The position numbers and the translations under genes were made by a program. Positions 3,121-55,800 of a stretch of DNA of 64,000 nucleotides are shown in pieces. Under the pieces are notes generated by a model. It did not search any database, was not told the DNA's origin, and worked only from the letters and a program-made list of their open reading frames with translations. Source of the stretch: Actinomycetota bacterium (GTDB taxonomy: Bacteria; Actinomycetota; JAHEXW01; JAGVPG01); contig JAGVPG010000002.1 of NCBI GenBank assembly GCA_020052375.1, forward strand, positions 30,759 through 94,758, given 5' to 3'. Positions within the stretch are counted from its first letter, which is position 1. Each line of letters begins with the position of its first letter.

Positions 3121-3584
3121 ATTATTAATATATCAACATGTATTCATGGTGTCAAGGATATCGAGGAAATCAAGGAGGTCAAGGAGGTCGATGAAGAACG
3201 AGCAGGAGTCTTTTGTAACCGCCGACCTGAAGGTCGGCGGTTACATTCTCTTGTTTCTTTCTACAGTGTTTAAACAATGTCACGTGCGAATGGGTGGATA
3301 CTGTTTGAGTCATGCTCCATAAGGGAGCTGACCTTAGATTTTGTGAGCATTTACCAGGTCTGTGAGGAAGACCTTCTGAAAAAGTGTAAAAAGAGTCTTA
3401 CGAACGACCTTGGAAAATGAGAACAAAATCAAGGACGGCGACCAGGAGTATGACTCAAACATATCCTCCCGTGAGTACTCTAATTTTGTCTGTTTTGTCA
3501 CTTGCTTTTGATTTTGAACGGAGTAGAATAGTCATTTATGGGCAATGTCCAAGCCGGACGTTGTCTCGGAGGTGTTAAAGTAGT

Positions 3585-7043: not shown

Positions 7044-7061
7044 AACGGTGGATGAAGAGCT

Positions 7062-9842
7062 GTGAAACAAATATCCGTCGATGATGATAATAGAGCCAAA
7101 CTTTTCGATGCTCCGCATAAAGACGTCCTGCGGTTCTTAGAGACCAGTGAAAAGGGCCTCACCGACACCGAGGTACTGGCGAGGCTTGATCGATTCGGAC
7201 CAAATGAGCTGTCTGAAGTCGGTCGCACTCCTCTCATATTCAAATTTCTAGAAAATTTTTATCATTTTTTCGCCATCCTCTTGTGGGTCGGCGGAATTCT
7301 AGCGTTTGTCGGCAGAATGCCCCAGCTCGGGTGGGCTATTTTTGCCGTCATCTTCATAAACGCGTCATTCAGTTTCTGGCAAGAATACAGGGCAGAGAAA
7401 GCGACAGAAGCTCTCAAACGACTTATGCCGCATAAAGCAAAGGTCGTACGTGACGGCGAGACAAAACAGGTCGACGCCGCGGAGATCGTCCCCGGCGACA
7501 TCCTTGTTCTGGACGAAGGAGACAACATACCGGCTGACGGGCGTTTGGTCCAGGAGTTTGAGATGCGGACGAATAACGCGGTCCTGACAGGTGAATCAGA
7601 ACCTGTCCGCAAAACAGCTGGCCTCGTAAAGACCGAAAACCTTACCATAACAGAGCTTCCGAATGCTGTTTTTTCCGGGACTTCCGTCGCTTATGGCGGA
7701 GGAAAAGCAGTTGTTTACGCGACAGGGATGAACACCCAATTCGGTAAGATCGCACAGCTCACTCAGAGCGTTAAAGAAGAACCTAGCCCGCTGCAAAAAG
7801 AAATGGTGAAAGTGACGCAGCTAGTCGCGATGCTAGCGATCGGTCTCGGTGTGCTTTTCTTTGTCCTCGGCTATTTTGTCGCTGGTCTTTCTTTGATAGA
7901 GGGATTTGTATTTGCCGTCGGTATCATCGTTGCCAACGTACCGGAGGGACTTTTACCTACAGTCAGCTTATCTTTAGCTATGGGTGTCCAGCGTATGGCA
8001 CAGAGGAATGCTCTGGTCAAAAAGCTCTCATCTGTAGAAACGCTGGGCAGCGCCACGGTGATCTGTACGGATAAAACCGGAACGCTGACGCAGAACGAGA
8101 TGACTGTACGAGAGATCTGGGTCAACGGGCAACATCTGCACGTATCGGGTACAGGATATGAACCAAAAGGGACGTTTTTACATAAAGACAAGCATCTATC
8201 GGATGACGAGCTCAAATCGATAGAGCTTCTTATGCGTTCGGCAAGCTTCTGCAATAACGCCAGGTTGCTGCCACCGACCGAAGAAAATCAGAGTTGGACG
8301 CTTCTGGGAGACCCTACTGAAGGCGCCCTGCTGGTCGCCTCGCTTAAGGCAGGCTTTGATTATAAAGAAGAGTTGATGGGCGCAAAAAGAATCTATGAAC
8401 TGCCGTTTGACTCTGTACGGAAACGTATGAGTACCATTCACATGCATAAATTCGGACGTATCGGTTATGTAAAAGGCGCCCCGAAAGAAGTCCTGGATCT
8501 GTGCACTAAGATAGCAACTCCAGAGGGTCCAAAACCGTTAGATAAAGAAACAAGGAGTAAGATCATAGCGCAAAACGATGCGTTTGCCAGATCGGCCTTA
8601 AGAGTACTGGCGATGGCCTATAGGGAGATAGATAAAGAGCATAAGACATATACTCCTGACAACGTTGAGTCCGAATTGGTCTTTGTAGGCCTGATGGCCA
8701 TGATGGACCCACCGCGGGAAGAGGTCGCGGAGGCGGTCCATCAATGTAAGACTGCCGGGATCAAAATCATCATGGTCACCGGCGATTACGGTCTGACTGC
8801 AGAATCTATTGCGCATCGGATCGGTATTATTGAAAAAGGAGAGGGGCGGATCATAACAGGAGCCGACCTTAATAAGATCACAGACGATGAGTTGAAAGTG
8901 GAACTGGAAAAAGAGAATATTCTTTTTGCCCGGGTTTCTCCGGAACACAAGATGAGAATAGCCGACTGTCTTAAAGAAATGGAACATGTCGTGGCTATGA
9001 CGGGGGACGGTGTAAATGACGCACCGGCTCTAAAAACGGCTGATATCGGCGTCGCCATGGGCATTTCTGGTACGGATGTGGCCAAAGAAGCAGCCGACAT
9101 GATCCTTACAGATGATAATTTCGCTAGCATCGTGCATGCGATAGAGGAAGGTCGCGCAGTCTACGATAATATAAGGAGGTTTGTGACATATATATTCACC
9201 AGCAACATCCCCGAGATCATACCGTTTATTCTGTTTGTAGTGTTCCGCATACCCTTGCCGCTGACCGTCATGCAGATACTAGCCATCGACTTAGGAACAG
9301 ATATGCTGCCGGCCCTGGCACTCGGCACCGAAAAACCGGAACCCGGTGTAATGGAACGGGCACCCAGGTCAAGCAAAGAGCGTCTTTTAAACCTGAAGTT
9401 GATGTCAAGGGCATATTTCTTCCTCGGACCCATTCAGACTGCTGCTTGCATGTTCGGTTTTTTCTTTATGTATTTGTCGAATGGTTGGAGGATCGGTCTG
9501 CCGATGGCCGCTTCCGGATTGCTTTATGCCAAAGCTACAACCATGACTCATGCCGGCGTCGTTACCACGCAGATAGGCAATGCTTTTGCCCAGAGGACGA
9601 ACCGCGAATCGATATTCACAATCGGCTTTTTCAGTAATAAGTTCCTGTTGTGGGGCATAGTGGCCGAGATGATCGGTATTTTCATTCTTATTTACGTACA
9701 ACCTTTCCAGTCCGTATTCGAACATGGGCCACTCGCCTTAACTGACTGGCTTGTCTTGTTTGCGATGGCGCCTGTTCTGCTGATAGCTGATGAGACCAGA
9801 AAAGCTATTGTTCGCTGGCGGCTGAAAAAGATAGTCTCTTGA
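7062..9842 (+). CDS. P2-type cation-transporting P-type ATPase (paralog B)
   Basis: 926 aa, colinear and highly similar to the upstream ATPase (DKTGTLTQNEMTVREIW, MVTGDYGLTAESIA, TGDGVNDAPALK). Tandem paralog. Confidence 0.9.
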   Translation: MKQISVDDDNRAKLFDAPHKDVLRFLETSEKGLTDTEVLARLDRFGPNELSEVGRTPLIFKFLENFYHFFAILLWVGGILAFVGRMPQLGWAIFAVIFINASFSFWQEYRAEKATEALKRLMPHKAKVVRDGETKQVDAAEIVPGDILVLDEGDNIPADGRLVQEFEMRTNNAVLTGESEPVRKTAGLVKTENLTITELPNAVFSGTSVAYGGGKAVVYATGMNTQFGKIAQLTQSVKEEPSPLQKEMVKVTQLVAMLAIGLGVLFFVLGYFVAGLSLIEGFVFAVGIIVANVPEGLLPTVSLSLAMGVQRMAQRNALVKKLSSVETLGSATVICTDKTGTLTQNEMTVREIWVNGQHLHVSGTGYEPKGTFLHKDKHLSDDELKSIELLMRSASFCNNARLLPPTEENQSWTLLGDPTEGALLVASLKAGFDYKEELMGAKRIYELPFDSVRKRMSTIHMHKFGRIGYVKGAPKEVLDLCTKIATPEGPKPLDKETRSKIIAQNDAFARSALRVLAMAYREIDKEHKTYTPDNVESELVFVGLMAMMDPPREEVAEAVHQCKTAGIKIIMVTGDYGLTAESIAHRIGIIEKGEGRIITGADLNKITDDELKVELEKENILFARVSPEHKMRIADCLKEMEHVVAMTGDGVNDAPALKTADIGVAMGISGTDVAKEAADMILTDDNFASIVHAIEEGRAVYDNIRRFVTYIFTSNIPEIIPFILFVVFRIPLPLTVMQILAIDLGTDMLPALALGTEKPEPGVMERAPRSSKERLLNLKLMSRAYFFLGPIQTAACMFGFFFMYLSNGWRIGLPMAASGLLYAKATTMTHAGVVTTQIGNAFAQRTNRESIFTIGFFSNKFLLWGIVAEMIGIFILIYVQPFQSVFEHGPLALTDWLVLFAMAPVLLIADETRKAIVRWRLKKIVS

Positions 9843-12502: not shown

Positions 12503-14584
12503 ATGAACCTAGACACGCCCGTCATCATCCTTATCGCTTCGATCCTGGCATCGCTGGCCGCTATCGGCTATGGTGTCGTCCTCATCTTTTTCATCCTTAA
12601 GCAACCGGAGGGTGATGAAAAGATGAAGGAGATCGCCCGCGCTATTCAGGAAGGAGCAAAGGCCTATCTGAACAGGCAATATCGCACGGTAGCTATCGTC
12701 GCTGTCGTATTGTTCGGAGTTATCTGCCTTGGTCTCGGCTACCAAGGAGGTTGGGTAGAAGGTGTAAGAACCGGCATCGCTTTCTTGATCGGAGCGATCG
12801 CATCCGCTGCAGCCGGTTACATAGGGATGAACATCTCGGTCAGAGCCAACGTCCGGACCGCTGAAGCAGCCAAGAAGGGGCTTAGCCCGGCGCTTCAGAT
12901 GGCTTTTCGGGGCGGTACGATTACCGGACTGATGGTCGTCGGGCTTGCGTTGCTCGTGGTCTCCGGTGTTTATCTTATGTTCAGCGACGTAAAAGCCCTG
13001 ATCGGGCTTGGCTTCGGCGGAAGCCTGATCAGCGTCTTCGCCAGACTTGGCGGCGGTATCTACACGAAAGCGGCGGATGTCGGCGCCGATCTCGTCGGCA
13101 AGGTGGAAGCCGGTATCCCCGAAGACGATCCGCGGAATCCAGCTGTGATCGCCGATAATGTGGGTGATAACGTTGGTGATTGTGCCGGTATGGCAGCCGA
13201 CCTGTTCGAGACATACGTAGTCACTGCTGTAGCGGCAATGCTGCTCGCCGACATCCTTTTCGATCACAACGAGACGGTCATCATATTTCCATTGCTTTTA
13301 GGTTCGATATCCGTCATCGCCACTATAATCGGCAGCTTCTTTGTACGCACGAAGGAAGGCGGCGGTATTATGGCCAGTCTATACAAGGGCGTGATCGCCA
13401 GCGCCGTGATCGCCGCTGTGGGCTTCTTCCCCGCTACATTCTATCTGATGAAAGATGTCATGATAGGCACCACCAAGGTCGAACCAGTGAACCTGTATAT
13501 AACCTCTCTGATAGGTCTGATAATAACATTCGCGATAGTCGTGATAACCGAATACTTCACGGCGACCCGGTATGATCCCGTAAGAAGGATAGCCCTGGCA
13601 TCTACTACCGGGCATGGTACAAATATCATCGAGGGATTGGCCGTCGGTATGCAATCGACCGGATGGCCCGTACTTGTCATCACGACAGGTATGCTCGCCG
13701 CGTATACCCTCGGCGGGGCCCAGAACGGCGGCCTGTTCGGCGTCGCGATCGCCGCGATGTCGATGTTGTCTCTGACCGGCATAATCGTCGCAATCGACGC
13801 ATACGGTCCGATCACCGACAATGCCGGCGGCATAGCCGAGATGGCTAAGCTCCCGGAGAGTGTGAGGGCGGTCACTGATCCACTTGACGCGGTCGGAAAC
13901 ACAACAAAGGCCGTTACCAAGGGTTATGCCATAAGCTCCGCGGCTCTCGCGGCACTGGTCCTGTTTGTAGCCTATACACAGGAGGTCAGCTCCGCCGGAA
14001 TACAGCTGAAATTCGACCTCGGTGATATATCGGTGCTGATAGGGTTGTTTATAGGTGGATTATTGCCGTACCTTTTCGGCTCGCTATGTTTGGAGGCGGT
14101 CGGCAAGGCAGCCGGCAAGGTCGTCGATGAAGTAAGACGCCAGTTTAAAGAGATCCCCGGTATCATGGAAGGCACTGGGAAGCCTGATTATGCTCAAGCC
14201 GTCGATATAGTGACAAAGGCAGCTATCAAAGAGATGATGGTGCCCGCGTTCATCCCGGTTTTAGCACCTATCCTGGTCGGCTTCATCCTCGGTCCTAAAG
14301 CCCTTGGTGGTCTCCTGGTCGGGAGCATAGTAGTCGGCTTCTTTATGGCCGTATCTATGACGAACGGCGGGGCCGCCTGGGACAACGCTAAGAAATATAT
14401 CGAGGACGGCAATTACGGCGGTAAGGGCAGCAAGGCTCACGCGGCCGCGGTGACCGGCGATACTGTCGGCGATCCTTATAAAGACACCGCGGGACCGGCG
14501 ATAAATCCGATGATCAAGGTCGTCAATATCGTAGCTCTGCTGATAGCGCCGTTACTGGCACAATATGGGTCTTTGATCAAATAA
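12503..14584 (+). CDS. hppA: membrane-bound proton/sodium-translocating pyrophosphatase
   Basis: 693 aa polytopic protein with [39 protein letters not shown] and a C-terminal [18 protein letters not shown], the diagnostic membrane-PPase motifs. Confidence 0.9.
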
Positions 14585-14609
14585 AGACTCTAAACAGAGC
14601 TATTGATTT

Positions 14610-14636
14610 TGTAGCAGCCGACCTTGATTGTCGGCC
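14610..14636 (-). repeat. 27-bp hairpin repeat GGCCGACAATCAAGGTCGGCTGCTACA (left copy, inverted)
   Basis: Reverse complement of 14610..14636 is identical to 25376..25402. Itself a stem-loop (GCCGAC-aatcaag-GTCGGC). Sits between the hppA stop and the methyltransferase start. Confidence 0.9.
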
Positions 14637-15293
14637 AAAACTGCGGAGATAAAAACGGATAAAGAAGCAGTACACAATCAAAATATAGAGGCTTTCAATA
14701 AATGGGCCGCTTCATATGACGGCTCCTTCCTAGGAAAACTCGCTCTCGGTGTCCAAAAACGCATTCTACCTTATCTGAAAGACGCTGACTTCGATTCTCT
14801 ACTGGATATCGCATGCGGTACAGGAGTGCTCCTCAAAGAGGTCGAAGACCGGTTCGCTAAAACCAATCAAACTATTAAGCTGGCCGGTATAGATCTTTCC
14901 CCCCGTATGCTGGACATCGCCAAGCGGACACTGGGAGAAGAAGTAGACTTAAGGGAAGGCGAAGCAGACGGTTTGCCGTGGCAGGCGAAAAGTTTCGACG
15001 TTGTGACTTGCACCAACGCTTTCCATCACTTCCCTGAACCAGCAGCAGTGCTATCCGAGGTCAAACGGGTTCTAACACCTGGGGGGCTTTTCATAATCGA
15101 AGATATCTGGCTGCCACCGTTCTTCAGGCAGATCGCCAATCTCTTTTTGCCACTAAGCCCTGAAGGCGATGTCCGCATCTATTCAAGAGGCGAACTCGTC
15201 TCCATGCTGTCTATCACAGGCTTCATGGACATCAAATGGCAAAGACTTTTCATATACGGCGGCATAACCACCGCTACCCGCCCACGGGAATAA
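14628..15293 (+). CDS. class I SAM-dependent methyltransferase
   Basis: LLDIACGTGVLL motif I and DVVTCTNAFHHF, Methyltransf_11-like. TTG start. The gene lies inside the inverted-repeat-bracketed segment together with the cas locus. Confidence 0.75.
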   Translation: MSAKTAEIKTDKEAVHNQNIEAFNKWAASYDGSFLGKLALGVQKRILPYLKDADFDSLLDIACGTGVLLKEVEDRFAKTNQTIKLAGIDLSPRMLDIAKRTLGEEVDLREGEADGLPWQAKSFDVVTCTNAFHHFPEPAAVLSEVKRVLTPGGLFIIEDIWLPPFFRQIANLFLPLSPEGDVRIYSRGELVSMLSITGFMDIKWQRLFIYGGITTATRPRE

Positions 15294-15413
15294 GCGCACT
15301 GTTACATTTACATCTTCTATAATTCATCGTCTTTTAGTTATATAATACACACCACATAATTTTTTACCTTATGACAATGGTTACTTCTGGACTAGTTTTC
15401 GGAGGGAAGGTCA

Positions 15414-17993
15414 ATGCCTGCGCCACGTCGAATGAATATCACTGTTACCGAGGTACCAGGTGAGATTTGTTGGGCAAAAACACTTTCTAACGGTTCGCCA
15501 GGGATCTCGGTCCGAGACCATTGCCTAAATGTAGGCTGTGTCGCAGAAGCGTTGTTGGGTTTATTGCCAGAGCAATTGTGTGAACTACTTCCTAAATCAC
15601 CAGCTATACTTGCCGCACTTCACGACATCGGAAAAATGTCTCCCGGATTTCAGGTGAAGTGCCAGGATTGGCTCAACTGTCATAGACTCTCTGAATTAGC
15701 ATTGAAAGAGTGCTGGCAATTACGAGAGTCGGATCACGCCAAAATCAGTCAATCTACCACCCAGAAACGTCTTAACCAGTCAAAGCTCAATCCATGGGCT
15801 GCAATCATTGGAGCACATCATGGGAAGATCAAGGGTGAGCGTGTCAGCCTGAGTGAACCATGGGAAACTGAGCGACTTCAGTTGTTGGATGAGCTCACCA
15901 AAGAATTCGGTCCACTGCCAGATGATAATCCTGACGACGCGACACTTTGGTTTCTTGCAGGACTTATCACCGTAGCGGACTGGATTGGGTCAGACGAGAA
16001 TCGTTTCTTACAGAATGCCCGCTGGTCTATAACGGAACGACGAGAGCGTGCGGTTTCTGCCCTCCAAGAAAATGGATTGACCAGGACGTCTGTTATAAAA
16101 GACCTGGCTTTTAAAGACCTATTCCCATTGACGCCCCAAGCCAACAATCTACAAGACATAGTGACAGAGGCTATACAAAAACCGGGAGTCTACATTATCG
16201 AAGCACCTATGGGGTATGGCAAAACAGAAGCAGCGCTAAAGGCTGTGTATCAACTTGTCGAAGCAGAACAAGCAACAGGGCTTTATTTCGCGTTGCCGAC
16301 GCAAGTTACCAGTAACCGCATTTACCTTCGTCTACAGCCATTTATTGATTTGATTTGCAGCAATTCGGGCGATGTTCGACTATGTCATGGTGCTTCTTGG
16401 TTGTTTGATGCCAAGCCACCGCTTCGCTTAAGAGCCGCCAGTGCCGACGCGGAAGCACAAACATATATACAAGATGGACGATCATGGTTTGCGTCATCTA
16501 AGCGTGCTCTTCTCGCACCGTTCGGCGTGGGCACGATTGACCAGGCATTATTGGGCGTGGTTGCCTCGAAACATTTCTTTGTTAGGCAATTCGGTTTAGC
16601 GGGAAAAGTTGTTATTCTTGACGAGATCCATACCTATGATCTGTACACAAGTACGCTGGTTGACGAATTAGTAAAAAGACTGCGAGAGCTAGAGTGCACT
16701 GTCATTATTTTATCTGCTACTTTAACTAAGCAACGCCGAAGGGAATTGCTGCAATTAGATGACAAACAACCACTTAGCACAGCTTATCCACTGATTTCAA
16801 GCAGAAATGGACAGTTGTCTGAATGGCCATGCGATTCACTCACTGATAGGACTATCAACATCCGGTGTGTTTCAGGCAACGGTTTAGTTGAAGAAGCGTT
16901 AGAAAAAGCACATCGAGGCGCCTGTGTTCTCTGGATACGTAATACTGTAGATAATGCGCAAGAGAGCTATCGCGCCCTTAAGAATGCAAGCGTAGAAGGA
17001 GGACCACCAATTGCATTGCTACACTCTCGGTTTCCATTCTTCCGCCGTGAAGAGCTTGAGAATGAGTGGATAGATCGGCTCGGTAAGGATTCGCTGCAGC
17101 GTCCTTCTGGCTGTGTACTGGTTTCTACTCAAGTTGCCGAGCAAAGCGTAGATATCGATGCCGATATGCTGATTAGCGACCTTGCTCCGACTGACATGTT
17201 GCTCCAACGTATAGGTCGGCTATGGCGACACAAAAGGGCAAACCGACCTTGTACAACGCCTGACGTTTGGATCCAGATACCTTCACTCGACGATAAGGCT
17301 CTACGGAGTGCCAACAAAGATGAACTCTATGAAGCCCTGGGTAAGAGTGCCAAGGTTTATGCTCCATATGTGTTGTTGCGCTCACTAGACCAATGGCGGA
17401 ACTGTACCGAGATTAGACTGCCTTCTCAGACGCGGCCGATTCTCGAGGCAACGTATTGTGACTCCGAGGTGCAAGAACCGGAAACATGGACACAACTACG
17501 AGAAGAGCTTGAGCAACAGAGAGAGAAGATGGCGACGCAAGCTCTTGGCATTACAAGAGTTTGGACGATCCCTGCACTTAAAGATGAGGAAGGTGTGCAA
17601 ACACGATATAGCTCCTTTCCAACAGCTCAGTTATTACTCCTAAACGACATGGAACAACTGGATGCCAACTCGGTGAGACTACAGTTGTTAAACGGCGACA
17701 TTACTATTGCTTATGATTTCGACTGGGACGTGAATGTAGCTAAAGCAATACACCGAAACCTAGTTCGTATACCGCACTGGGTTATTGCCGAACAGCTTAA
17801 TCGTCCTCCACGCTGGTTAGCAAATTACGTTCATCAACCAGTAACTGTGGGTATTATTCGTACAGATGGTAAAATCAGCGGTATGAATAATGAGCTATTG
17901 CTACCAATTTCATATAACGCGGACCAAGGCGTGATCATCGACAGAACACAAATACCACGTTTTGAGGAGGATACCGATGAATATTTCGACTGA
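15414..17993 (+). CDS. cas3: type I-E Cas3 HD-nuclease/helicase
   Basis: N-terminal HD domain (LHDIGKMSPGFQ, GAHHGK), then DEAD/DEAH helicase motifs (APMGYGKTEAAL, VVILDEIH, SATL). First gene of the I-E operon. Confidence 0.9.
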   Translation: MPAPRRMNITVTEVPGEICWAKTLSNGSPGISVRDHCLNVGCVAEALLGLLPEQLCELLPKSPAILAALHDIGKMSPGFQVKCQDWLNCHRLSELALKECWQLRESDHAKISQSTTQKRLNQSKLNPWAAIIGAHHGKIKGERVSLSEPWETERLQLLDELTKEFGPLPDDNPDDATLWFLAGLITVADWIGSDENRFLQNARWSITERRERAVSALQENGLTRTSVIKDLAFKDLFPLTPQANNLQDIVTEAIQKPGVYIIEAPMGYGKTEAALKAVYQLVEAEQATGLYFALPTQVTSNRIYLRLQPFIDLICSNSGDVRLCHGASWLFDAKPPLRLRAASADAEAQTYIQDGRSWFASSKRALLAPFGVGTIDQALLGVVASKHFFVRQFGLAGKVVILDEIHTYDLYTSTLVDELVKRLRELECTVIILSATLTKQRRRELLQLDDKQPLSTAYPLISSRNGQLSEWPCDSLTDRTINIRCVSGNGLVEEALEKAHRGACVLWIRNTVDNAQESYRALKNASVEGGPPIALLHSRFPFFRREELENEWIDRLGKDSLQRPSGCVLVSTQVAEQSVDIDADMLISDLAPTDMLLQRIGRLWRHKRANRPCTTPDVWIQIPSLDDKALRSANKDELYEALGKSAKVYAPYVLLRSLDQWRNCTEIRLPSQTRPILEATYCDSEVQEPETWTQLREELEQQREKMATQALGITRVWTIPALKDEEGVQTRYSSFPTAQLLLLNDMEQLDANSVRLQLLNGDITIAYDFDWDVNVAKAIHRNLVRIPHWVIAEQLNRPPRWLANYVHQPVTVGIIRTDGKISGMNNELLLPISYNADQGVIIDRTQIPRFEEDTDEYFD

Positions 17994-19494
17994 TTCGTGG
18001 ATTCCTGTTGTCTGGCAAAACGGCCAACCTGATGTGGTGAGCCTGGTTGATGTTTTTACCCGGGGTCACGAAATCCAGGATCTCACGGTACGACCTCATG
18101 AACGTATCGCGCTAATGCGACTGCTGATCTGTATAACACAATCCGCACTTGATGGTCCTACTGATCATGATGACTGGAAAGACTGCCAAATGTGTATCAA
18201 ATCATCTGTCCTCGAGTACCTCAAGAAATGGCATGATGCCTTCGAGTTGTTCGGTAAAGGTCAGCGGTTCCTGCAGGTCATCAAATTAAGTAGTAACGTG
18301 AACAAATCTATCAGTCACTTAGACGAAGGCAGTTCTATGAGTAAGCTGGATGTTGCTCTCGCTACAGGTAACAATTCAACCCTATTTGATAACGCTGGTG
18401 GATCGGAACGACTGTTTAAGCCAGCACGACTCGCACTCAACATGCTCAGCTTCCAGTGTTTTTCCCCAGGTGGACGTATCGGAATTGCAAAGTGGAATGG
18501 AAGGGAGACCGCCGGTAAGGGTTCAAGTAACCATGCTCCATGTATCACACAGGGCATGTTGCACGCCCTGATCAGAGGCAAAACCCTCCTTGAAACAATG
18601 CACCAGAACCTTATGACGAAACAGCAAAGCGAACTTTTCTTCGGTAAAAATTGTTGGGGAAAGCCGGTCTGGGAAAAGATGCCCAAAGATCTTACTGACA
18701 ACTTAGCCGTTCAAAACGCGACAAAAACGTATCTGGGGCGGCTCGTACCACTCGCCCGCGCTATATACCTTGAAGATAATGGTAATAGACTAACACTTGC
18801 CAATGGACTGGACTATATCAGTTATCCCGGATGGCGAGAACCCACAGCTACAGTAGTCACGCGCAAGATTAAAAACCAGCCAACGCGCATGATTCTACGA
18901 GCTTCAACCGATAGAGCGATATGGCGCGAGCTTCATGCATTAGCAGTGAAATCTGTTAATCAAGAACTCGGCGGGCCAGCTGCTTTGCAAAACTGTAATG
19001 ACGAAAAGGCTTTCGATCTCTGGGTAGGCGGTCTAGTGGCCAACCAAGCTAAGTTGGTAGATACCACTGAATCCGTATTCCATATTCCTGCAATGATGCT
19101 TACTAATCCAAGTCAGCAAGCTTATGAACAAGGAGTACGTTATGCCGAAACTACCGGATTTCAGCTAGCGCAAGCTGTCTCAATCTTTCACCGCGAACTC
19201 GGAGATGATCTTAACGCTTCAGAGTCGCGAGATCGACGACAACAAATCCAGAACAAGGCATATTCACAATATTGGACCGGTATTGAACAAAACGTAGCTG
19301 AATTACTTGAAGTGGCCACTAGTCCGGAGCGCTTAGGGCTTGAGATGACATGGCAAAAAACTACGTGGGGGGCGTCAGTATGGCGAGCGGCACGAGCAGC
19401 CTACGAATACTCTTGTGCACATGTAACACCACGCCAGATACGTGCGTATGCTTTAGGGTTAAGCAGGTTGGCTGCAACATCGACCCAATCGTAA
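17977..19494 (+). CDS. cse1: Cse1/CasA (Cas8e) large Cascade subunit
   Basis: About 505 aa in the casA position. Start ATG at 17977 (MNISTDSWIPVVWQNG..., typical Cse1 N-terminus) with the SD GAGGAGG. Overlaps the cas3 stop. Confidence 0.8.
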   Translation: MNISTDSWIPVVWQNGQPDVVSLVDVFTRGHEIQDLTVRPHERIALMRLLICITQSALDGPTDHDDWKDCQMCIKSSVLEYLKKWHDAFELFGKGQRFLQVIKLSSNVNKSISHLDEGSSMSKLDVALATGNNSTLFDNAGGSERLFKPARLALNMLSFQCFSPGGRIGIAKWNGRETAGKGSSNHAPCITQGMLHALIRGKTLLETMHQNLMTKQQSELFFGKNCWGKPVWEKMPKDLTDNLAVQNATKTYLGRLVPLARAIYLEDNGNRLTLANGLDYISYPGWREPTATVVTRKIKNQPTRMILRASTDRAIWRELHALAVKSVNQELGGPAALQNCNDEKAFDLWVGGLVANQAKLVDTTESVFHIPAMMLTNPSQQAYEQGVRYAETTGFQLAQAVSIFHRELGDDLNASESRDRRQQIQNKAYSQYWTGIEQNVAELLEVATSPERLGLEMTWQKTTWGASVWRAARAAYEYSCAHVTPRQIRAYALGLSRLAATSTQS

Positions 19495-19521
19495 TAATCT
19501 CAACCGAAAAAGGAGAGAATC

Positions 19522-20022
19522 ATGAATAAGAGTCTGTCAGATCCGAAGGAAACCGCTGAGAAGTTCCTAAACTTCCTACGCCAATTAAAGAATGATCGCG
19601 GTGCGATGGCTGACCTGCGACGCGCGCTTACTCCGATACAGCGATATAGAGCCTGGCCTGTGCTTGCACGCTTCGGTGGAATTAATAAACCTCGGTTCGA
19701 GATTATTGCCGGTTTGTATGCACATCATCCAGAGGAAACGAGCACCGGCAACCTTGGTACAACGTGTAGGCAGCTTAGTGGCGAATATCACAGCTTTGAG
19801 GGACGCTTCCGTCGCCTTCTATGTTGTGACCGTGAGGATATCTACGGACATATTAGACCAATTGTGCTTGCAGCCGCTTCCAAGGGGATTCGCATTAACT
19901 ATAAGCAGCTCTTTACTGATCTTTCGTACTGGGGCGATAGTGTAAAGGCACGGTGGGCAACGGAATTCTGGGGTGCTCCAACTCAAGAAGTAGTGCCAGC
20001 CGGAGTAGAGGACCAACCATGA
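19522..20022 (+). CDS. cse2: Cse2/CasB (Cas11) small Cascade subunit
   Basis: 166 aa basic helical protein in the casB position, directly after cse1. Confidence 0.75.
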   Translation: MNKSLSDPKETAEKFLNFLRQLKNDRGAMADLRRALTPIQRYRAWPVLARFGGINKPRFEIIAGLYAHHPEETSTGNLGTTCRQLSGEYHSFEGRFRRLLCCDREDIYGHIRPIVLAAASKGIRINYKQLFTDLSYWGDSVKARWATEFWGAPTQEVVPAGVEDQP

Positions 20023-20648
20023 CTCATTTAGCCCAAATAAACCTCGATTTTGCAACGGTTGCGCATCTACAAATTCGTGATGCCTATGACTGGCATCAGA
20101 GAGTCTGGCAATGCTTTCCTGGTAGGGACGGTAAGCAACGGGATTTCCTGACACGTCTAGATACACGGCCTGAGGGTTTCCGTTTGCTGATCGTATCTCC
20201 TATAAATCCTGTGCGCCCCGACTGGTGCCCTCAAGACTCTGAACATTGGAAAGTCAGACCAATACCCGATGATTATTTTAAACGTCGGTGTTATGCATTC
20301 CAGCTTTGTGCCAATCCAACCAAGAAAATTGCCGTACAGAACGCCGATGGCAGCCGTAAGAAAAACGGTCGACGAGTACCATTAAGCAACCGTGTAGAAC
20401 TGTTATCATGGATCACGAGGAAGGGCAAACAAGGCGGTTTTACAGTCGATGACGAAACCTTGCACACTTTTTCTCACGGCCGTGAGTACTTCTCAAAGAA
20501 CGGTATTCGTGGTTTACATAGCGCCGTTGAGTTTGAGGGGGTGTTGACCGTGATTGATTCTAAGAGATTTTGCGAAGTCTTTAAACGTGGCATCGGCCCA
20601 GCAAAGGCTTTCGGCTTCGGTTTATTAGTCATCGCGCCAATTGCTTGA
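20019..20648 (+). CDS. cas6e: Cas6e (CasE) crRNA endoribonuclease
   Basis: ATG at 20019 overlaps the cse2 stop (ATGA). About 209 aa ending in the glycine-rich loop GIGPAKAFGFGLL characteristic of Cas6e. Its position between cse2 and cas7 is non-canonical. Confidence 0.8.
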   Translation: MTHLAQINLDFATVAHLQIRDAYDWHQRVWQCFPGRDGKQRDFLTRLDTRPEGFRLLIVSPINPVRPDWCPQDSEHWKVRPIPDDYFKRRCYAFQLCANPTKKIAVQNADGSRKKNGRRVPLSNRVELLSWITRKGKQGGFTVDDETLHTFSHGREYFSKNGIRGLHSAVEFEGVLTVIDSKRFCEVFKRGIGPAKAFGFGLLVIAPIA

Positions 20649-20678
20649 ACCTATTGATGTTGTCGAAAGGAGATACCT

Positions 20679-21746
20679 ATGAAATTAATCGAACTCCACA
20701 TCCTGCAGTCATTCCCCGTGTCGTGCCTGAATCGCGACGATGTAGGAGCACCCAAAACAGCTGTATTCGGTGGTGTTAACCGCGCTCGCATTTCCAGCCA
20801 GTGCCTGAAAAGAGCGGTTCGTGAACAAGCTCAAGCAACGTCGCCAGAATTGTTCGCTGGTAATCGCAGCCGGCTAATCATCAACCCTTTAGCTGAAGCT
20901 CTAAAGCAATATGGCGTGCTTGATGAAAAAGCCACCGAAGTCGCCAAGCAGATTGGGGACTACCTAGCAACAACCGATAAGAAAGCAGAGAAGAACGGTG
21001 AGCTCAAGGTTAAAACCCTGATGTTCCTATCCCCTGCCGAAATAGACATAGTCGCCAAAACTCTGGCGGACATCCTAGCTGCAGATCCTAAAGCCAAGGA
21101 GCTTGAAAAAGCGGTCGCTAAAGCCTGCAAGTCGGCAGCGCTGAAAGATGCTGCCGATATCGCTATTTTTGGTCGAATGGTTGCGAGTGACCATTCACTA
21201 ACGTTGGAGGGTGCAGGATTATTCAGCCATGCGCTTTCCACTCATAAAGCAGCCAACGATATTGATTTCTTTTCAGCAGTCGATGATCTGCAGGGGACAG
21301 AGGAAGCCGGTGCTGGTATGACGGGAATCCTGGAGTTCAACTCCGGTACTTTCTACCACTATGCTGGGCTGAACCTCGACCTGCTGGTAGATAAAGATCA
21401 TCTTGAAGTTTTGTCTAGCGAGGATCTCAAGAATGTTGTAGATACGTTCTTGCGTGCTACCATCCTTGCAGTGCCCAGTGCGCGCAAGAACTCGATGAAT
21501 GCAAATACGTTACCCGGTTATGTTCTTGGTCTGGTTAAGGAGACAGGCCAGCCCCTGCAGTTGATCAATGCTTTCGAGAATCCTGTCCCCAACAAGAGTG
21601 GTCTGATGGATGACTCTATTGCAAGACTTAAACACCACCATGATCAACTTAAGAAGACTTGGGGTATCAAACCGTCTGTGGAAGCAAGCATACCAGACAA
21701 GTCCCTAGATGTGTTCTGTAAGGAGATAATTAGCCATGTCGTCTAA
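20679..21746 (+). CDS. cas7: Cas7e (CasC) Cascade backbone subunit
   Basis: 355 aa. N-terminus MKLIELHILQSFPVSCLNRDDVGAPKT...GGVNRARISSQCLKRAVR is the classic Cas7e/CasC start. Confidence 0.9.
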   Translation: MKLIELHILQSFPVSCLNRDDVGAPKTAVFGGVNRARISSQCLKRAVREQAQATSPELFAGNRSRLIINPLAEALKQYGVLDEKATEVAKQIGDYLATTDKKAEKNGELKVKTLMFLSPAEIDIVAKTLADILAADPKAKELEKAVAKACKSAALKDAADIAIFGRMVASDHSLTLEGAGLFSHALSTHKAANDIDFFSAVDDLQGTEEAGAGMTGILEFNSGTFYHYAGLNLDLLVDKDHLEVLSSEDLKNVVDTFLRATILAVPSARKNSMNANTLPGYVLGLVKETGQPLQLINAFENPVPNKSGLMDDSIARLKHHHDQLKKTWGIKPSVEASIPDKSLDVFCKEIISHVV

Positions 21747-22461
21747 GGTTGTATATCTTACGCTGCTACTTGATGCCCCGCTGCAGTCATGGGGTTTCGC
21801 TAGCCGATTCCAACGACGCACGACGGGATTACACCCAACTAAGAGCGGCGTCATTGGAATGATATCTGCAGCCATGGGCCTAGCTAAGGGCTCACAAAAG
21901 GAGTCTGAGATCCTACCGCAGCTGCTTCGTTTGCCAATGACCAGCATTGTTATTCCCGGCCACAAGCAATCAACGTGGCAGGATAACGCGGAAGATCTGC
22001 CGTTACGACGAATGGAAGACTTCCATACTGTCCAGCATACACGCCGTGCAAGCGGAACTATAAATAGAGATGCAGTTATTACCCGCCGCCAATACCTGCT
22101 TGACGCGCATTTCGGTGTGATTCTGGAAGGTGATAGTGTCTTGCTGGAGCAAGTTGCCAGCGCTCTACTGGATCCACAGTGGGGAGTCTGGTTTGGTCGG
22201 AAGAATTGCATCCCGGCCGCTCCTATCTACCGAGGTCTGTTCACCACACAAAACGAGGCCTTACGGCTTTTGATAGATGATGTGCCACTAGAATACCTTA
22301 CTGTAGTTACCGAAGTTGATCGATTTGACGAAGGTACAGACTCAATCCCCGATCAACCTATCAGCTTTGGTGATGATAAGAGCAGTGGTCCTGATGCCCG
22401 TCGTTTTGCCGTTCGCCGTGTAAAGATCCAACCAGGTATTAGGCTTCCAGCAAAGGAGTAA
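21736..22461 (+). CDS. cas5: Cas5e (CasD)
   Basis: 241 aa. LTLLLDAPLQSWGFASRFQRRTT...PTKSGVIGMISAAMG matches the Cas5e N-terminal glycine-rich segment. Confidence 0.85.
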   Translation: MSSKVVYLTLLLDAPLQSWGFASRFQRRTTGLHPTKSGVIGMISAAMGLAKGSQKESEILPQLLRLPMTSIVIPGHKQSTWQDNAEDLPLRRMEDFHTVQHTRRASGTINRDAVITRRQYLLDAHFGVILEGDSVLLEQVASALLDPQWGVWFGRKNCIPAAPIYRGLFTTQNEALRLLIDDVPLEYLTVVTEVDRFDEGTDSIPDQPISFGDDKSSGPDARRFAVRRVKIQPGIRLPAKE

Positions 22462-22464
22462 GCC

Positions 22465-23298
22465 TTGCCTATCTTCGAAAAACCGCCAATAGAATCACTC
22501 TCGCCGGCTAAAGACCGGTGGACGCCTATTTATTTGGAACACGGACGGCTGGAAGTGGATGATTCCAGTATCAAGTGGGTTGGCGCTGATCGCATGGTAT
22601 ACCGACTACCTGTTGCAACCATATCAGCCGTGATGCTTGGCCCTGGAACAACAGTAACGCACGCCGCGATGAAAGCCTGTGCGGATTCGAACACACCAAT
22701 CTGTTGGGTCGGCGAAGACGGCATGCGTTTCTACGCATTTGGCATCACGCCCAATCATGACAATTCGACATCTCGAAAACATGCCGCTGCTTGGGCTGAT
22801 AAGAAGAAGAGGGTGGTAATTGCCCACCGTATGTTTTCACAGCGCTTCCCCGACATTGATGTGACCCAATACGGCATCAAAGAACTCCGGGGAATGGAAG
22901 GATTGCGGGTGCGCGCTAAATATGCCGAACTTGGCCAACAGTATGGCGTTACCTGGAAACGCCGGGACTACGACAAGACCAATTGGAATCTAGCTGATAA
23001 CATCAATCGTGCGCTCTCCGCTGCCAATGCAAGCCTCTACGCTGTATGTACTGCAGTAGTCTGCTCGCTCGGCTATGTTCCCTCACTCGGTATCGTCCAT
23101 GACGCTGGCACACTGCCATTCATATATGATGTTGCCGATCTCTATAAAGAGATCACGTCATTTCCTGCCGCATTTCAAGCTGTTCATCAGAATCCTAACG
23201 ATAGAGGGCAACTGGTTCGCGCACTTCTAAAGGAGCGTATAGAAGGCGAGCGCCTACTTAAAAGGATGCCAAAAGATTTGGAGGAGTTGTTCGGATGA
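22465..23298 (+). CDS. cas1: Cas1 integrase (I-E)
   Basis: 277 aa, TTG start. Conserved Cas1e features (IYLEHGRLEVDDSSIKW..., HAAMKACADSNTPICWVGEDG). Followed by cas2 with an ATGA overlap. Confidence 0.85.
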   Translation: MPIFEKPPIESLSPAKDRWTPIYLEHGRLEVDDSSIKWVGADRMVYRLPVATISAVMLGPGTTVTHAAMKACADSNTPICWVGEDGMRFYAFGITPNHDNSTSRKHAAAWADKKKRVVIAHRMFSQRFPDIDVTQYGIKELRGMEGLRVRAKYAELGQQYGVTWKRRDYDKTNWNLADNINRALSAANASLYAVCTAVVCSLGYVPSLGIVHDAGTLPFIYDVADLYKEITSFPAAFQAVHQNPNDRGQLVRALLKERIEGERLLKRMPKDLEELFG

Positions 23299-23588
23299 CC
23301 GTTATCGTTGCAAAAGATACACCTGATGCTATCCGAGGTATGCTTAAGCGCTGGTTTATAGAGCCTCGTCCCAACGTTTTTGTTGGCACACTTAATCGCC
23401 GCACACACGAAAAAACAATCGAGTACATCAAACGTAATGCCGGAGATATTGGCTTACTTATCATCAGTAGCTACCCTAACTGCCAAGGTTATAAAATCGA
23501 GTCATGTGGCCCGACTGACCGCAAAGGTATTGAGGTTGCAGGCTTGTGGCTCGTTGCAGAGAAATGGGAGGAGCCGGAAACAGTTTAG
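23295..23588 (+). CDS. cas2: Cas2 (I-E)
   Basis: 97 aa. MTVIVAKDTPDAIRGMLKRWFIEPRPNVFVG matches the Cas2e N-terminus. Ends 45 bp before the first repeat. Confidence 0.85.
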   Translation: MTVIVAKDTPDAIRGMLKRWFIEPRPNVFVGTLNRRTHEKTIEYIKRNAGDIGLLIISSYPNCQGYKIESCGPTDRKGIEVAGLWLVAEKWEEPETV

Positions 23589-23633
23589 TCAATATGTTGT
23601 AGAGTGAGAAATGAACTGCTACAACATGGCAGG
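23589..23633 (+). promoter_or_regulatory. CRISPR leader-proximal segment with a 9-bp inverted repeat (ATGTTGTAG...CTACAACAT)
   Basis: Only 45 bp separate the cas2 stop from repeat 1. They contain a perfect 9-bp inverted repeat around a 16-nt loop. Repeat orientation and the degenerate distal repeats place the leader on this side. Confidence 0.5.
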
Positions 23634-25126
23634 GTTTTCCCCACACGCGTGGGGATGGTCCGTTCTTAGTAGCTACCAGGGATTGAATGTAATTGTTTTC
23701 CCCACACGCGTGGGGATGGTCCGGGACACACTTAAAAATGCTACAGAGGGTCTTTGTTTTCCCCACACGCGTGGGGATGGTCCGTATAGGAGGGGTTAAG
23801 GATGAATAAATACAAAGTTTTCCCCACACGCGTGGGGATGGTCCGTTCTAATTCCTCACCCGTGCTTTCCTCTATTTGTTTTCCCCACACGCGTGGGGAT
23901 GGTCCGGCAAGCAAGCATTGTATGACTGCCTAACAGAAGTTTTCCCCACACGCGTGGGGATGGTCCGATGTAGCCGCCGGACAACTGTTAGGATTGATGG
24001 TTTTCCCCACACGCGTGGGGATGGTCCGTTCAGAGATGTTTACAAAACTCATGTTAAATAGTTTTCCCCACACGCGTGGGGATGGTCCGTACTTTCATGG
24101 AGTCCTGTGGCAAGTCGTTTGGTTTTCCCCACACGCGTGGGGATGGTCCGTTCTAATTCCTCACCCGTGTCTTCCTCAAGTTGTTTTCCCCACACGCGTG
24201 GGGATGGTCCGAAGCAGGGGAGTCATTTGTTTGATATAGGGCAGTTTTCCCCACACGCGTGGGGATGGTCCGGGTCTGCAACCAATCATACAACCGCTCA
24301 TGCCGTTTTCCCCACACGCGTGGGGATGGTCCGAGTCTGTAGACTTGTACCACTTTTTCTATATAGTTTTCCCCACACGCGTGGGGATGGTCCGTACCGG
24401 ATTCTCTTTTAGTACCAGATCAAGCGGTTTTCCCCACACGCGTGGGGATGGTCCGAGATCTGTTGAATTCAAACAACACTCTTGCCTGTTTTCCCCACAC
24501 GCGTGGGGATGGTCCGGATTTTCTTAACAGCCGCATCCTCGAATATAAGTTTTCCCCACACGCGTGGGGATGGTCCGAGCTTTTAGAGCTTCAAGATCAT
24601 CCATTGTGAGTTTTCCCCACACGCGTGGGGATGGTCCGCCTCCAGGAAGAGAACACGCGCTTGCATGATGGTTTTCCCCACACGCGTGGGGATGGTCCGA
24701 GCTTTTAGAGCTTCAAGATCATCCATTGTGAGTTTTCCCCACACGCGTGGGGATGGTCCGGCATCTGTATTCGAGAGCCCTATAGCCCTCGTGTTTTCCC
24801 CACACGCGTGGGGATGGTCCGGGTGTCCTGTCTTACAACGCTATGATCAAAGCGTTTTCCCCACACGCGTGGGGATGGTCCGCTGTTCATCTCTTTCTTT
24901 AACCAAGGCTACTTGTTTTCCCCACACGCGTGGGGATGGTCCGTCCAGATCGTACATTTCGGCCATTGAGAATGGGTTTTCCCCACACGCGTGGGGATGG
25001 TCCGAATACTGGGATATGTGTGTGCATAATGACTATGTTTTCCCCACACGCGTGGGGATGGTCCTTCTCTTGCATCTGCCTATCCAACGAGATTGCCGTT
25101 TTCCCCACACGCGTGTGGATGGTTCA
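23634..25126 (+). CRISPR. type I-E CRISPR array: 25 repeats of GTTTTCCCCACACGCGTGGGGATGGTCCG (29 bp), 24 spacers of 32 bp
   Basis: Repeat starts at 23634, 23695, 23756 ... 25037, 25098, with a regular 61-bp period. The last two repeats are degenerate: repeat 24 ends ...GTCCT, and repeat 25 is GTTTTCCCCACACGCGTGTGGATGGTTCA. The repeat has an internal palindrome CCCCAC/GTGGGG and a GGGGATnnnCCG 3' end typical of I-E. Confidence 0.97.
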
Positions 25127-25171
25127 AATCTGGCTAGGATCCATCTAAGCTTAACTAAATCCCCTTTGGTT

Positions 25172-25200
25172 AGCCGACCTAAAGGTCGGCGGCTACATTA
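25172..25200 (+). repeat. related hairpin repeat AGCCGACCTAAAGGTCGGCGGCTACATTA
   Basis: Same family, stem CCGACC/GGTCGG with a GGCTACA tail. Another copy at 3219..3250 (CCGCCGACCTGAAGGTCGGCGGTTACATT). A degenerate copy at 30961..30992 (CGACAACTTTGGTTGTCGGGTCGGCGGCTACAAA). Confidence 0.75.
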
Positions 25201-25375
25201 TTATTTCGTACGAGCGAGGCCGAGAGTCGAGCGGCGATTTCCACGCTGGGGAAATCGACCGCGTCTTTTAGAGTGGATACAACCGGCGGGCTTTTTCTAA
25301 TTTATAAGACGCGAGCACTCACTTATATAACAAAAGGGGCCGCCTCCCGGCAACCCCTTCAGTGCTTCTTGAGAG

Positions 25376-25402
25376 GGCCGACAATCAAGGTCGGCTGCTA
25401 CA
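25376..25402 (+). repeat. 27-bp hairpin repeat GGCCGACAATCAAGGTCGGCTGCTACA (right copy)
   Basis: Perfect inverted match to 14610..14636. Lies 250 bp past the last CRISPR repeat. Confidence 0.9.
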
Positions 25403-25423
25403 TACGTTGTCTTCTATACATCT

Positions 25424-25520
25424 TGTGCTTGGGGAGGTTGAAGAATTCTTCGAGCGAGAATCTTTAGCGAGAAGAATTACTTCAACCTCGCCCAGGCACA
25501 CACTTTTTATATTGTTTTGC
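25424..25520 (+). terminator. long imperfect hairpin plus T-tract after the array (likely bidirectional terminator; member of a 2-copy repeat family)
   Basis: TGTGCTTGGGGAGGTTGAAGAATTCTTCGAGCGAG...CGAGAAGAATTACTTCAACCTCGCCCAGGCACACA, followed by CTTTTTATATTGTTTTG. It lies 3' of the array on plus and 3' of the fbp-like gene on minus. Confidence 0.5.
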
Positions 25521-26646
25521 CTGATGCTTTTGCTTTGTTTTCTTCTGTGTCGGTTTCCCAACGATCCTTGAGCGATTCCATGACGATCGGCATCGTCGTG
25601 TATTCCATATCGTCAAGCGGTAGGCGGTGCGGCTCGAACGGGCCGTGGGCTTTCAGATAATCCGCCATCTCGTTCGCTATCTGGCGGGCTCTGTCGTAAC
25701 TTACGTCCGCGAACATGTCGCGTGGTCCCACCAGTTTCCCGTCTTTCAGCTGGAAGCCGAGAGCCACTACCCGCGGGGGTCCATCGAACCTGGTCGGGTG
25801 GTCATCTTTCATGCTGACCGGCATCAACGGACCATGGTGAGAACCCCTCATCCATCCGGCTACGAGGTGCGGGAACGCGAACGGGTTTACGACCTCGCCG
25901 ACTGCCGGAAGGCCCGACTGACAGCGAACAGCCATAACGGGGTCGTCTTTACCGACATACTTGCCGGCTATGAACGACAATCTTTGAGTCGACGTGACCG
26001 CGGCTATCTCACCAGTCTTCTTTGAATAGACATGTTTGATGACGAAACGGCCCGGAGCGCCGATGAAGGCGAGCATCTGGTAAAGCTCGGACGGGCAGTC
26101 GAAAGTGACTTTCTTTGCTTCTTTCAGGTCGTCCACCTGTATATTGAATCCCTGGTACATATTCGAGTCTATGACAAGGCCGGCCGTATTGAACGGATCG
26201 CAGAACATCTTGTAAAGCGGCATATTCCACGCGCCGGGTTCTGTCTTATCAGCAAGAAAGCATATGATCGGTTCGCTCTGGCGCTCGACGAACTCCATCT
26301 CGGCATAGCCGGGACCCATACCCCGTAGATTGCCTGAAAAGGCGTCGCTTAAAATGTCCTGGCCCGCGCCGTATAAGCCCAGCGAGTGAGCGAGGTCGGT
26401 CATATCCAAAAAAGCGTCCCATGTAAACTTGTGGATCTCCTCGTTTCCCGGCCCTTTCTTGTGCGTCAAGATAAAAGCGTGATCATCTCCGCAATGACCG
26501 CAGAAATAGTCGATAATGATGCCGTTTTTCTTTGCTTTGGCCGCGTGCTCCTCCGCTTTCTCAATAAGAGCCGGGTGAACCGCCGAATGTCCGACAAAAC
26601 CGCCGACGTCAGCCTTGATGATACTTAGCGTGATCTTCTCTCCCAT
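25507..26646 (-). CDS. bifunctional fructose-1,6-bisphosphate aldolase/phosphatase (archaeal-type class V FBPase)
   Basis: 379 aa. N-terminus MGEKITLSIIKADVGGFVGHSAVHP and overall length match the FBP aldolase/phosphatase family. Confidence 0.8.
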   Translation of the reverse strand: MGEKITLSIIKADVGGFVGHSAVHPALIEKAEEHAAKAKKNGIIIDYFCGHCGDDHAFILTHKKGPGNEEIHKFTWDAFLDMTDLAHSLGLYGAGQDILSDAFSGNLRGMGPGYAEMEFVERQSEPIICFLADKTEPGAWNMPLYKMFCDPFNTAGLVIDSNMYQGFNIQVDDLKEAKKVTFDCPSELYQMLAFIGAPGRFVIKHVYSKKTGEIAAVTSTQRLSFIAGKYVGKDDPVMAVRCQSGLPAVGEVVNPFAFPHLVAGWMRGSHHGPLMPVSMKDDHPTRFDGPPRVVALGFQLKDGKLVGPRDMFADVSYDRARQIANEMADYLKAHGPFEPHRLPLDDMEYTTMPIVMESLKDRWETDTEENKAKASGKTI

Positions 26647-30832: not shown

Positions 30833-31048
30833 ATGTCCTCTAAGCTCGTCTGTTAACTTAATTATAGAGGGTTTATCGGAAGAAAGGGAACTGACGTTTA
30901 GGTCACTAGAAGAGTCTTTCTCTTAGATTGCTTCGGCTGTTCTAACGAACAGCCTCGCAACGACAACTTTGGTTGTCGGGTCGGCGGCTACAAATGCTTC
31001 ATCACTTTTTTTCCTGCGGTTCTTTCTTCCTCCTTCCTCTCTTCTGCG

Positions 31049-32947: not shown

Positions 32948-33352
32948 CGACCTCTCCCTTCAGTCCTAATGTCGGCAAACACACCCCCATCCTTGAACAA
33001 CGAACAGTGAACAGGGTGAATGAAGAGCAAGTCGCGAGCAGCAAGTAGTGAATGGTGAAAAGGTGGATCAATACTTGCTCTTATTAACCTTATTCTCACT
33101 GTTCTCTTATTCTCTTTGTTTACCTATCATACATGGGAGCAGGAGGACATTGTTCATAAGAGCGACTTTTAGAAGCGACCTTGGGCTTTGTGAGTAATCT
33201 GCCAGGTCGGTGGATATGCTTTTCTCTTAGTTTGCTTCGTCACGCTGGCAACCATTGTTCCTCGCAACGACACCGTTTGCCTGTGCTTTTTACCTTTTTC
33301 TAAACAATGTGCATTGTGCAAGCAGGAGACGAAAAACAACACATTATACATA

Positions 33353-33452
33353 CTGTGTCCGGGGAGGTTGAAGAATTCTTCGAGCGTGACTAAAACAAGT
33401 ACAAACGAGGTCTAAGCGAGAAGATTTGCTTCAACCTAGCCCGGGCACACAC
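33353..33452 (+). repeat. second copy of the long GGGGAGGTTGAAGAATTCTTCGAGCG...CTTCAACCT.GCCCGGGCACACAC hairpin element
   Basis: Both arms share long blocks with 25424..25503. Followed by CTTTTCTTGTCTTT. Sits 3' of the minus-strand gene ending at 33496. Confidence 0.6.
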
Positions 33453-33495
33453 TTTTCTTGTCTTTCGCCGACTGCGAGGACTCACTTTTTACTTG

Positions 33496-47284: not shown

Positions 47285-47287
47285 ACC

Positions 47288-51016: not shown

Positions 51017-51120
51017 AAAAAAAGGATACAGGAATCAGAAGGAAAGACACAACTATAAATTGCTTATCTTGCTTAGATCCCTCGCTACGCTCGGGATGAC
51101 CACGCTGGCGGACATTGTGG

Positions 51121-55784: not shown

Positions 55785-55800
55785 ACAGATTGGTGGGATT

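Follow-up and report, generated by a model that had tools for sequence, protein, structure and literature searches.

Repetitive extragenic palindromes (REPs) carrying a GTAG tag are described as elements of 20-40 bp with an unpaired tag, located mostly downstream of open reading frames (ORFs) between convergent or unidirectional genes and often in opposite orientation (Di Nocera et al., 2013, PMC3733652, whose definition is followed here; see also Nunvar et al., 2010, PMC2817692). The type I-E system of E. coli, located between iap and cysH, is an example of strain-variable CRISPR-Cas between core genes (Touchon and Rocha, 2010, PMC2886076), and a survey of defence hotspots in E. coli found most of the defence cargo on identifiable mobile elements (Hochhauser et al., 2023, PMC10121019). 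Both kinds of element meet in the DNA analysed here, a stretch of 64,000 nucleotides from an Actinomycetota bacterium (assembly GCA_020052375.1, contig JAGVPG010000002.1; hereafter the window), in which a type I-E CRISPR-Cas locus lies between the core genes hppA and fbp and is enclosed by two inverted, identical copies of a 27-bp hairpin. An earlier sequence-only reading had proposed that the hairpin pair delimits and possibly mobilises the cas locus with a methyltransferase gene as its passenger. Comparison with alleles of the same junction that lack cas genes demonstrated that the 27-mers neither delimit nor move the cas island.

The evidence for this came from L001 (ENA ERZ27256953) and L002 (JGI 3300031949), two sequences from other metagenomes that were retrieved by exact match of the fbp protein and are 97-99% identical to the window across the shared genes. 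In both, the gap between hppA and fbp measures about 330 bp and contains neither cas genes nor an array, which bears out the proposal that the cas locus was inserted between two core genes. The gap keeps both hairpins, two methyltransferase remnants and the fbp terminator. In the orientation of the window, the hppA stop is followed by the left hairpin, 87 bp matching 14630-14716, 14 unmatched bases, positions 15249-15293 and then the sequence from 25332 onward. The last 45 bp of the methyltransferase gene (15249-15293) and the 120 bp that directly follow them (window 25332-25451) are 100% identical to the window. The right 27-mer is also identical, and the left hairpin has identical flanks and carries a 45-nt structured module instead of the TTGATT loop of the window copy.

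Because L001 and L002 retain both hairpins, the true indel does not run from 27-mer to 27-mer but from 15294 to 25331. This strain-specific island of 10,038 bp (+ strand) comprises the cas3 promoter region, the cas operon, the array and its trailer, one internal hairpin and a 115-bp module. Its left end is the base after the TAA of the methyltransferase gene, and its right end adjoins the stem of the intrinsic terminator of fbp (25333-25360, - strand), which in L001 and L002 stands directly 3' of the methyltransferase remnant. The island ends thus fall 657 bp (left) and 44 bp (right) inside the 27-mers. Neither terminal repeats nor a target duplication were present there; the ends share just an imperfect ATAA microhomology, and no recombinase or transposase gene was found within the island or among the window ORFs tested.

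The hairpins themselves are as the sequence-only reading had described them. The 27-mer GGCCGACAATCAAGGTCGGCTGCTACA occurs twice in the window, at 25376-25402 (+) and, inverted, at 14610-14636 (-), exactly where the two copies had been located. A third copy was not found in the window even when 3 mismatches were allowed, and 100 shuffles produced none; the perfect 27-bp inverted repeat is real, and chance does not account for it. As an element, the left copy (REP_L, 14610-14636, +) has the structure TGTAGCAGCCGACC-TTGATT-GTCGGCC and lies 26 nt past the hppA stop with its GTAG end nearest to hppA. The right copy (REP_R, 25376-25402, -) is its exact reverse complement and is located in the 3' region of fbp between the fbp terminator and a palindromic element of about 95 nt. 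Folding confirmed the predicted stem-loop with an asymmetric tail: each copy forms a 6-bp GC stem-loop with an unpaired tail containing GTAG. The flanking genes had also been identified correctly, as hppA (12503-14584, +; Pfam) and the convergent FBP aldolase/phosphatase gene fbp (25507-26646, -; FBPase_3), and Pfam confirmed that all ORFs between the hairpins belong to the methyltransferase or the cas genes. The search for target-site duplications outside the two 27-mers, which the same reading had suggested, returned none, as the outer flanks read ...ctattgattt and ...gacaacgta in the same orientation.

Both 27-mers are members of a dispersed family, as had been suspected. The family core consists of TGTAGCMGCCGACC, a short loop (usually TTYA) and GGTCGGC, i.e., a GTAG tag and a GC-rich palindrome, and occurs at five loci in the window. 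The three loci besides the 27-mers correspond to the related hairpins reported earlier at 25172, 3219 and 30961: a copy within the island beside the array trailer (25173-25197, -; TGTAGCCGCCGACC-TTTA-GGTCGGC), a fully palindromic variant (3214-3245; TGTAACCGCCGACC-TGAA-GGTCGGCGGTTACA) and a long form (30868-30992, -), in which GTAG and the 5' stem half are followed by a second repeat, module 2, and the 3' stem half is missing. The unit measures about 25-27 nt with a GC-rich stem of 6-7 bp, folding z-scores range from -2.9 to -9.8, and TGTAGC precedes the stem in all copies except the variant at 3214, which has TGTAAC. Beyond the window, at least 17 copies with unique AT-rich flanks were found on 16 contigs of a single metagenome (3300031949), the one from which L002 comes; this pattern scan gives a lower bound on the family size, and most of its matches represented an unrelated coding motif of high-GC bacteria. 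The outcome that the sequence-only reading had itself named as speaking against it, a scattered hairpin and a cas locus independent of it, was encountered in spirit rather than to the letter: the hairpin recurs as a repeat between genes at scattered sites and is found whether or not the island is there.

In form and placement the family conforms to GTAG-tagged REPs and bacterial interspersed mosaic elements (BIMEs). It is a small palindromic, GC-rich stem-loop of about 25 nt with an unpaired GTAG at one end, multiple copies and unique flanks. Copies lie extragenically downstream of ORFs, between convergent or unidirectional genes; three of them are located 26, 105 and about 57 nt past the stops of hppA, fbp and the gene at 31049-32380, respectively, each with the GTAG end towards the gene, and the copies at 3214-3245 and 25173-25197 overlap no ORF of at least 100 aa other than a spurious one crossing the array (24665-25300). 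Neighbouring copies in opposite orientation and mosaics with other small repeat modules also occur. A RAYT gene (TnpA_REP, Y1 transposase), which in such families is typically flanked by REPs, was not seen among the window ORFs scanned, which were a part of all window ORFs. Unlike in typical GTAG-tagged REPs, the loop of some copies contains or is followed by the 45-nt structured module, and GTAG is often preceded by tandemly repeated heptamers. The inverted pairs are 290-540 bp apart, in contrast to the tight spacing of REP doublets forming hairpins (REPINs) and BIMEs. We conclude that these hairpins make up a REP-like family of the GTAG type that had not been described before and that has modular variants, and that the 27-mers are ordinary members of it, one in the 3' untranslated region of each of the two convergent genes. 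Rfam searches, of 14000-26000 at E<=1 and of the whole window at gathering thresholds, gave nothing at the hairpins or at the 115-bp module.

In many copies, purine-rich tracts or heptamer tandem repeats such as (GCAATAA)n, (GAACAGT)n and (GAAAACG)n are located directly upstream of GTAG, e.g., in L170 (~650-700), L174 (~2220-2258), L109, L124, L160 and the window (30993-31048, -). Such tracts may belong to the element itself or may have arisen when it inserted.

A counterpart of the right hairpin was identified in the more distant L206 and L207, where the hairpin TGTAGGCACCGGTC-TTTA-GACCGG with a CTACA tail is positioned between the fbp stop and the fbp terminator. Tag and loop are conserved in it, whereas two pairs of the stem are altered on both sides in a compensatory manner. 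This single comparison suggests that the hairpin behind fbp is old and was kept for its structure. The two 27-mer copies most likely act as 3' stem-loops in RNA.

The perfect identity of the two 27-mers has two components. Family membership alone explains the 14-nt 5' module and the 3' stem of both. The TTGATT loop, on the other hand, was seen in no other copy examined, so that REP_L and REP_R are each other's closest relatives. As L001 and L002 carry the long form at the left site and L205, a more distant relative, carries a degenerate trace of it there (CCGACC...GTCGTTGC), the short left copy is most simply read as derived in the window lineage, either through conversion from the right copy or through re-deposition. 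The reverse is seen at 30868-30992, where the window has the long form and L001 a plain 25-nt hairpin (5178-5216). Loop or module replacement thus occurred at two loci, with reciprocal states, which suggests that repeat copies often replace one another even though the strains are 97-99% identical.

Module 2, the second dispersed repeat, measures about 45 nt and consists of GTCGTTGCGAGG, a variable inner hairpin and CGAAGCAAWCTAAG; its ends are conserved between copies. It was observed at 33225-33271 (-) and 30920-30964 (-) in the window, at 10860-10902 in L001 and in L135, L143 and L174, and occurs on its own, immediately behind a GTAG hairpin or inside a hairpin loop. The palindromic element next to REP_R is a MITE-like repeat (MITE, miniature inverted-repeat transposable element) of about 95 nt (25415-25507; TATACAT...GGTTGAAGAATTCTTCGAGCGAGAATCTTTAGCGAGAAG...CTTCAACC...ACACACTTTT) that abuts the fbp stop. 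Further copies lie at 33345-33456 in the window and at 960-1065 in L143. In L001 and L002 the repeat is 31 bp shorter and forms a perfect 24-bp palindrome.

At its right end, the island contains the 115-bp module (25210-25324), which adjoins the internal hairpin at 25173-25197 and is 97% identical to positions 2909-3023 of L130. There, the sequence forms the 3' flank of a DUF169 gene fragment near a hairpin of the family, and the fragment lies directly beside an IS21 element (istA 533-1747, istB 1744-2532). This similarity suggests that the cas block may earlier have resided in a genome of the same lineage, beside a DUF169 gene.

The cas operon (15414-23588, +) is complete, with cas3, cse1, cse2, cas6e, cas7, cas5, cas1 and cas2 all above the Pfam threshold. 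It is followed by an array (23634-25126, +) of 25 repeats of 29 nt (GTTTTCCCCACACGCGTGGGGATGGTCCG) and 24 spacers of 32 nt, and together these features identify the system as type I-E. The last two repeats, at the cas2-distal end, are degenerate. The gene order places cas6e ahead of cas7; in E. coli, cas6e follows cas5. Only 45 bp (23589-23633) separate the cas2 stop from the first repeat, which is short for a type I-E leader, and leader functions may overlap the 3' end of cas2. Among the spacers, one occurs twice (24578-24609 and 24700-24731) with a single spacer in between, two others (23846-23877 and 24151-24182) are variants of a single protospacer, and the spacer at 23968-23999 includes TGTAGCCGCCG, the first 11 nt of the 5' module of the hairpin family. 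No spacer matched elsewhere in the 64-kb window.

The GC content at third codon positions (GC3) sets the cas genes apart. All eight have values of 0.42-0.50, below each of the 28 other window genes tested (0.52-0.71, mean 0.61), and the methyltransferase gene has a GC3 of 0.51. The lower GC content that had been noted for the segment therefore stands out clearly only at third codon positions; in bulk, the cas genes (0.484) differ just slightly from the rest of the window (0.508), and other window regions are equally low. The composition of the cas genes agrees with a foreign origin. The nearest cas3 outside the source contig is at most 66% identical; the named ones are from Acidobacteria, Planctomycetes, Binatia and Verrucomicrobia. 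The search for cas3 homologues revealed no second copy of the island.

The methyltransferase gene (14628-15293, +) encodes a class-I S-adenosylmethionine-dependent enzyme (Methyltransf_11/UbiE-like; Pfam), and Pfam gave no match to a DNA-methylase domain. The ATG at 14702 is likely the true start. The only full-length close homologue of the protein was that of the source contig itself; the next best (P0002) is 46% identical and sits in an unrelated MarR locus. The proposed role of the gene as a passenger of the cas genes could not be upheld. Since its remnants are present in the cas-less alleles L001 and L002, the methyltransferase and the cas genes arrived separately, and a fragment also occurs at the same junction in L205.

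To extend the comparison, relatives were graded by a protein search with hppA and their contigs were compared at the hppA-fbp junction. A search with fbp among GTDB species representatives had yielded a best match of 73% identity and no shared synteny. The two genes are directly convergent in L206 and L207 (two assemblies with identical junctions; hppA 76% identical, 370-bp spacer with terminators), L209 (74%, 84-bp spacer with a bidirectional terminator), L210 (74%, 114-bp spacer with a bidirectional terminator) and L211 (79%, 150-bp spacer with a terminator-like hairpin). The longer contigs of these outgroups keep the upstream synteny of a P-type ATPase gene, two TrkA genes, a major facilitator superfamily gene and hppA. 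In L205 (hppA 89%), the junction is filled with other cargo (5589-8114): a 441-aa protein without a Pfam family, a methyltransferase fragment 58-62% identical to the window protein and a PIN toxin gene after a short ORF. The short ORF and the PIN gene look like a putative vapBC-like pair. The PIN stop is 2 nt from the fbp stop, and the 3' elements of fbp are missing there. None of these relatives has cas genes at the junction, and the cas block was seen in the window haplotype only.

The junction therefore exists in at least four states: empty; with a gene of unknown function, a methyltransferase fragment and a vapBC-like pair; with methyltransferase remnants; and with methyltransferase and cas genes. 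The empty junction is probably the ancestral state, and the shared 3' region of hppA and fbp is a variable spot in this lineage, with conserved flanks, content that differs among relatives and cargo of atypical GC3. In this the locus resembles the strain-variable CRISPR-Cas and defence loci introduced above, as one strain has a complete set of cas genes with an array at a junction where near-identical relatives have neither and where further relatives have cargo of another kind, and as the composition of the cas genes is atypical. Unlike in the defence hotspots of E. coli, the backbone of a mobile element (integrase or transposase) could not be recognised with the island.

Taken together, we interpret the locus as an ordinary strain-specific CRISPR-Cas island in a variable junction of convergent genes, with resident REP-like elements nearby and in a genome where short structured repeats abound between genes, and give this interpretation a probability of roughly 0.8. 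The ancestral hppA-fbp junction would have held only a terminator or two. A methyltransferase gene would then have arrived in the ancestor of the window strain and its closer relatives, and the 10,038-bp type I-E block would have been inserted later, in the window haplotype only, between the methyltransferase stop and the fbp terminator. This insertion was probably an illegitimate event, after which homologous recombination in the conserved flanks may have exchanged the junction among strains. The sequences compared give no indication of rearrangement, inversion or chimerism. Several points weigh against this interpretation. The direct precursor allele, with an intact methyltransferase gene and no cas genes, was not found among the relatives compared, and the island may instead have been gained by a common ancestor and then lost from L001 and L002 when alleles were replaced. 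In addition, we infer the insertion mechanism and, from three alleles only, the conversion that would have made both hairpin copies identical. Finally, with its internal hairpin and 115-bp module, the block may have had a less simple origin in a related genome.

In a variant that we consider unlikely but worth stating, the hairpins and their companion modules actively exchange sequence between copies, and the repeat-mosaic 3' regions turn the junction into a recombination-prone landing pad that captured the cas block from a related genome, where it stood beside a DUF169 gene. The reciprocal replacements at two loci and the apparent conversion of the left 27-mer into a mirror image of the right one point to such exchange, and the 3' flank of the DUF169 gene and the hairpin at the right end of the island would be traces of the donor.

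Loss instead of gain, with the island present in the common ancestor and deleted from L001 and L002, which also erode the methyltransferase gene, appears improbable. CRISPR-Cas loci are often lost, and both alleles clearly underwent an internal methyltransferase deletion at this very locus. However, the island ends offer no repeats that could mediate a precise deletion, the cas-less junction places an intact fbp terminator exactly after the methyltransferase stop, as in an unoccupied site, and L205, L206/L207, L209, L210 and L211 all lack cas genes at the junction. Even if the island was lost, the hairpins would still not be its ends.

Far less probable is that the 27-mers are the termini of a REP- or MITE-bounded mobile unit that imported the methyltransferase, the cas genes and the array, or that inverted the segment. 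It is true that two inverted copies of a short repeat bracket cargo genes, as in composite transposons and MITE-flanked cassettes, that the perfect repeat is no product of chance, that the hairpin family is dispersed and probably mobile, and that the enclosed genes have an atypical GC3. Unlike in such elements, the repeats are not located at the indel ends, no target duplication is present, both repeats are found at the unoccupied site, and no transposase or recombinase is encoded in the segment or among the window ORFs tested. The separate arrival of the cargoes and the positional analogue of REP_R at the empty junction of L206/L207 likewise contradict a mobile unit. Inversion between the 27-mers, which had also been suggested, was rejected, as the methyltransferase gene or what is left of it points the same way with respect to hppA in the window, L001/L002 and L205. 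Integration of a circular island through recombination between REPs was rejected as well, as each end of the island should then have a hairpin copy in direct orientation, and none is present at the left end.

An assembly artefact, i.e., a chimeric contig in which the cas block was joined via short repeats, can practically be dismissed: the source is a metagenome contig (94,758 bp) and the region is rich in short repeats, but the island ends do not lie in repeated sequence, the methyltransferase ORF that leads up to the left end is intact and shares its last 45 bp with the L001/L002 remnant at 100% identity, the right end runs into the 120 bp of perfect identity with the same alleles, and the final k-mers of an assembly are typically longer than a 27-bp repeat.

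The locus thus does not represent a REP-bounded mobile CRISPR-Cas unit, and an attractive but wrong lead is removed. Instead, it offers a well-resolved case in which an uncultured lineage probably gained a CRISPR-Cas system between two convergent genes, with insertion ends defined to the base and cas-less alleles known. It also calls for caution, as a dispersed hairpin can form a perfect inverted pair around an island without marking where that island ends.

Elsewhere in the window, several features indicate that it is located near the replication origin: parB, parA, mnmE, a KH/R3H jag-like gene and yidC lie at 45514-53855, and the cumulative GC skew has its minimum near 56 kb (~55000-57000). 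The same region contains a fused gidA-gidB (MnmG-RsmG) gene of 866 aa, and a truncated second GidA-like ORF is located at 50345-51016. Rfam identified an M-box magnesium riboswitch at 60341-60517 and a c-di-GMP-II riboswitch at 63350-63415. The region of the latter (63348-63461) is followed, 261 bp downstream, by a tandem copy of 78% identity (63609-63722) that scores below the Rfam threshold.

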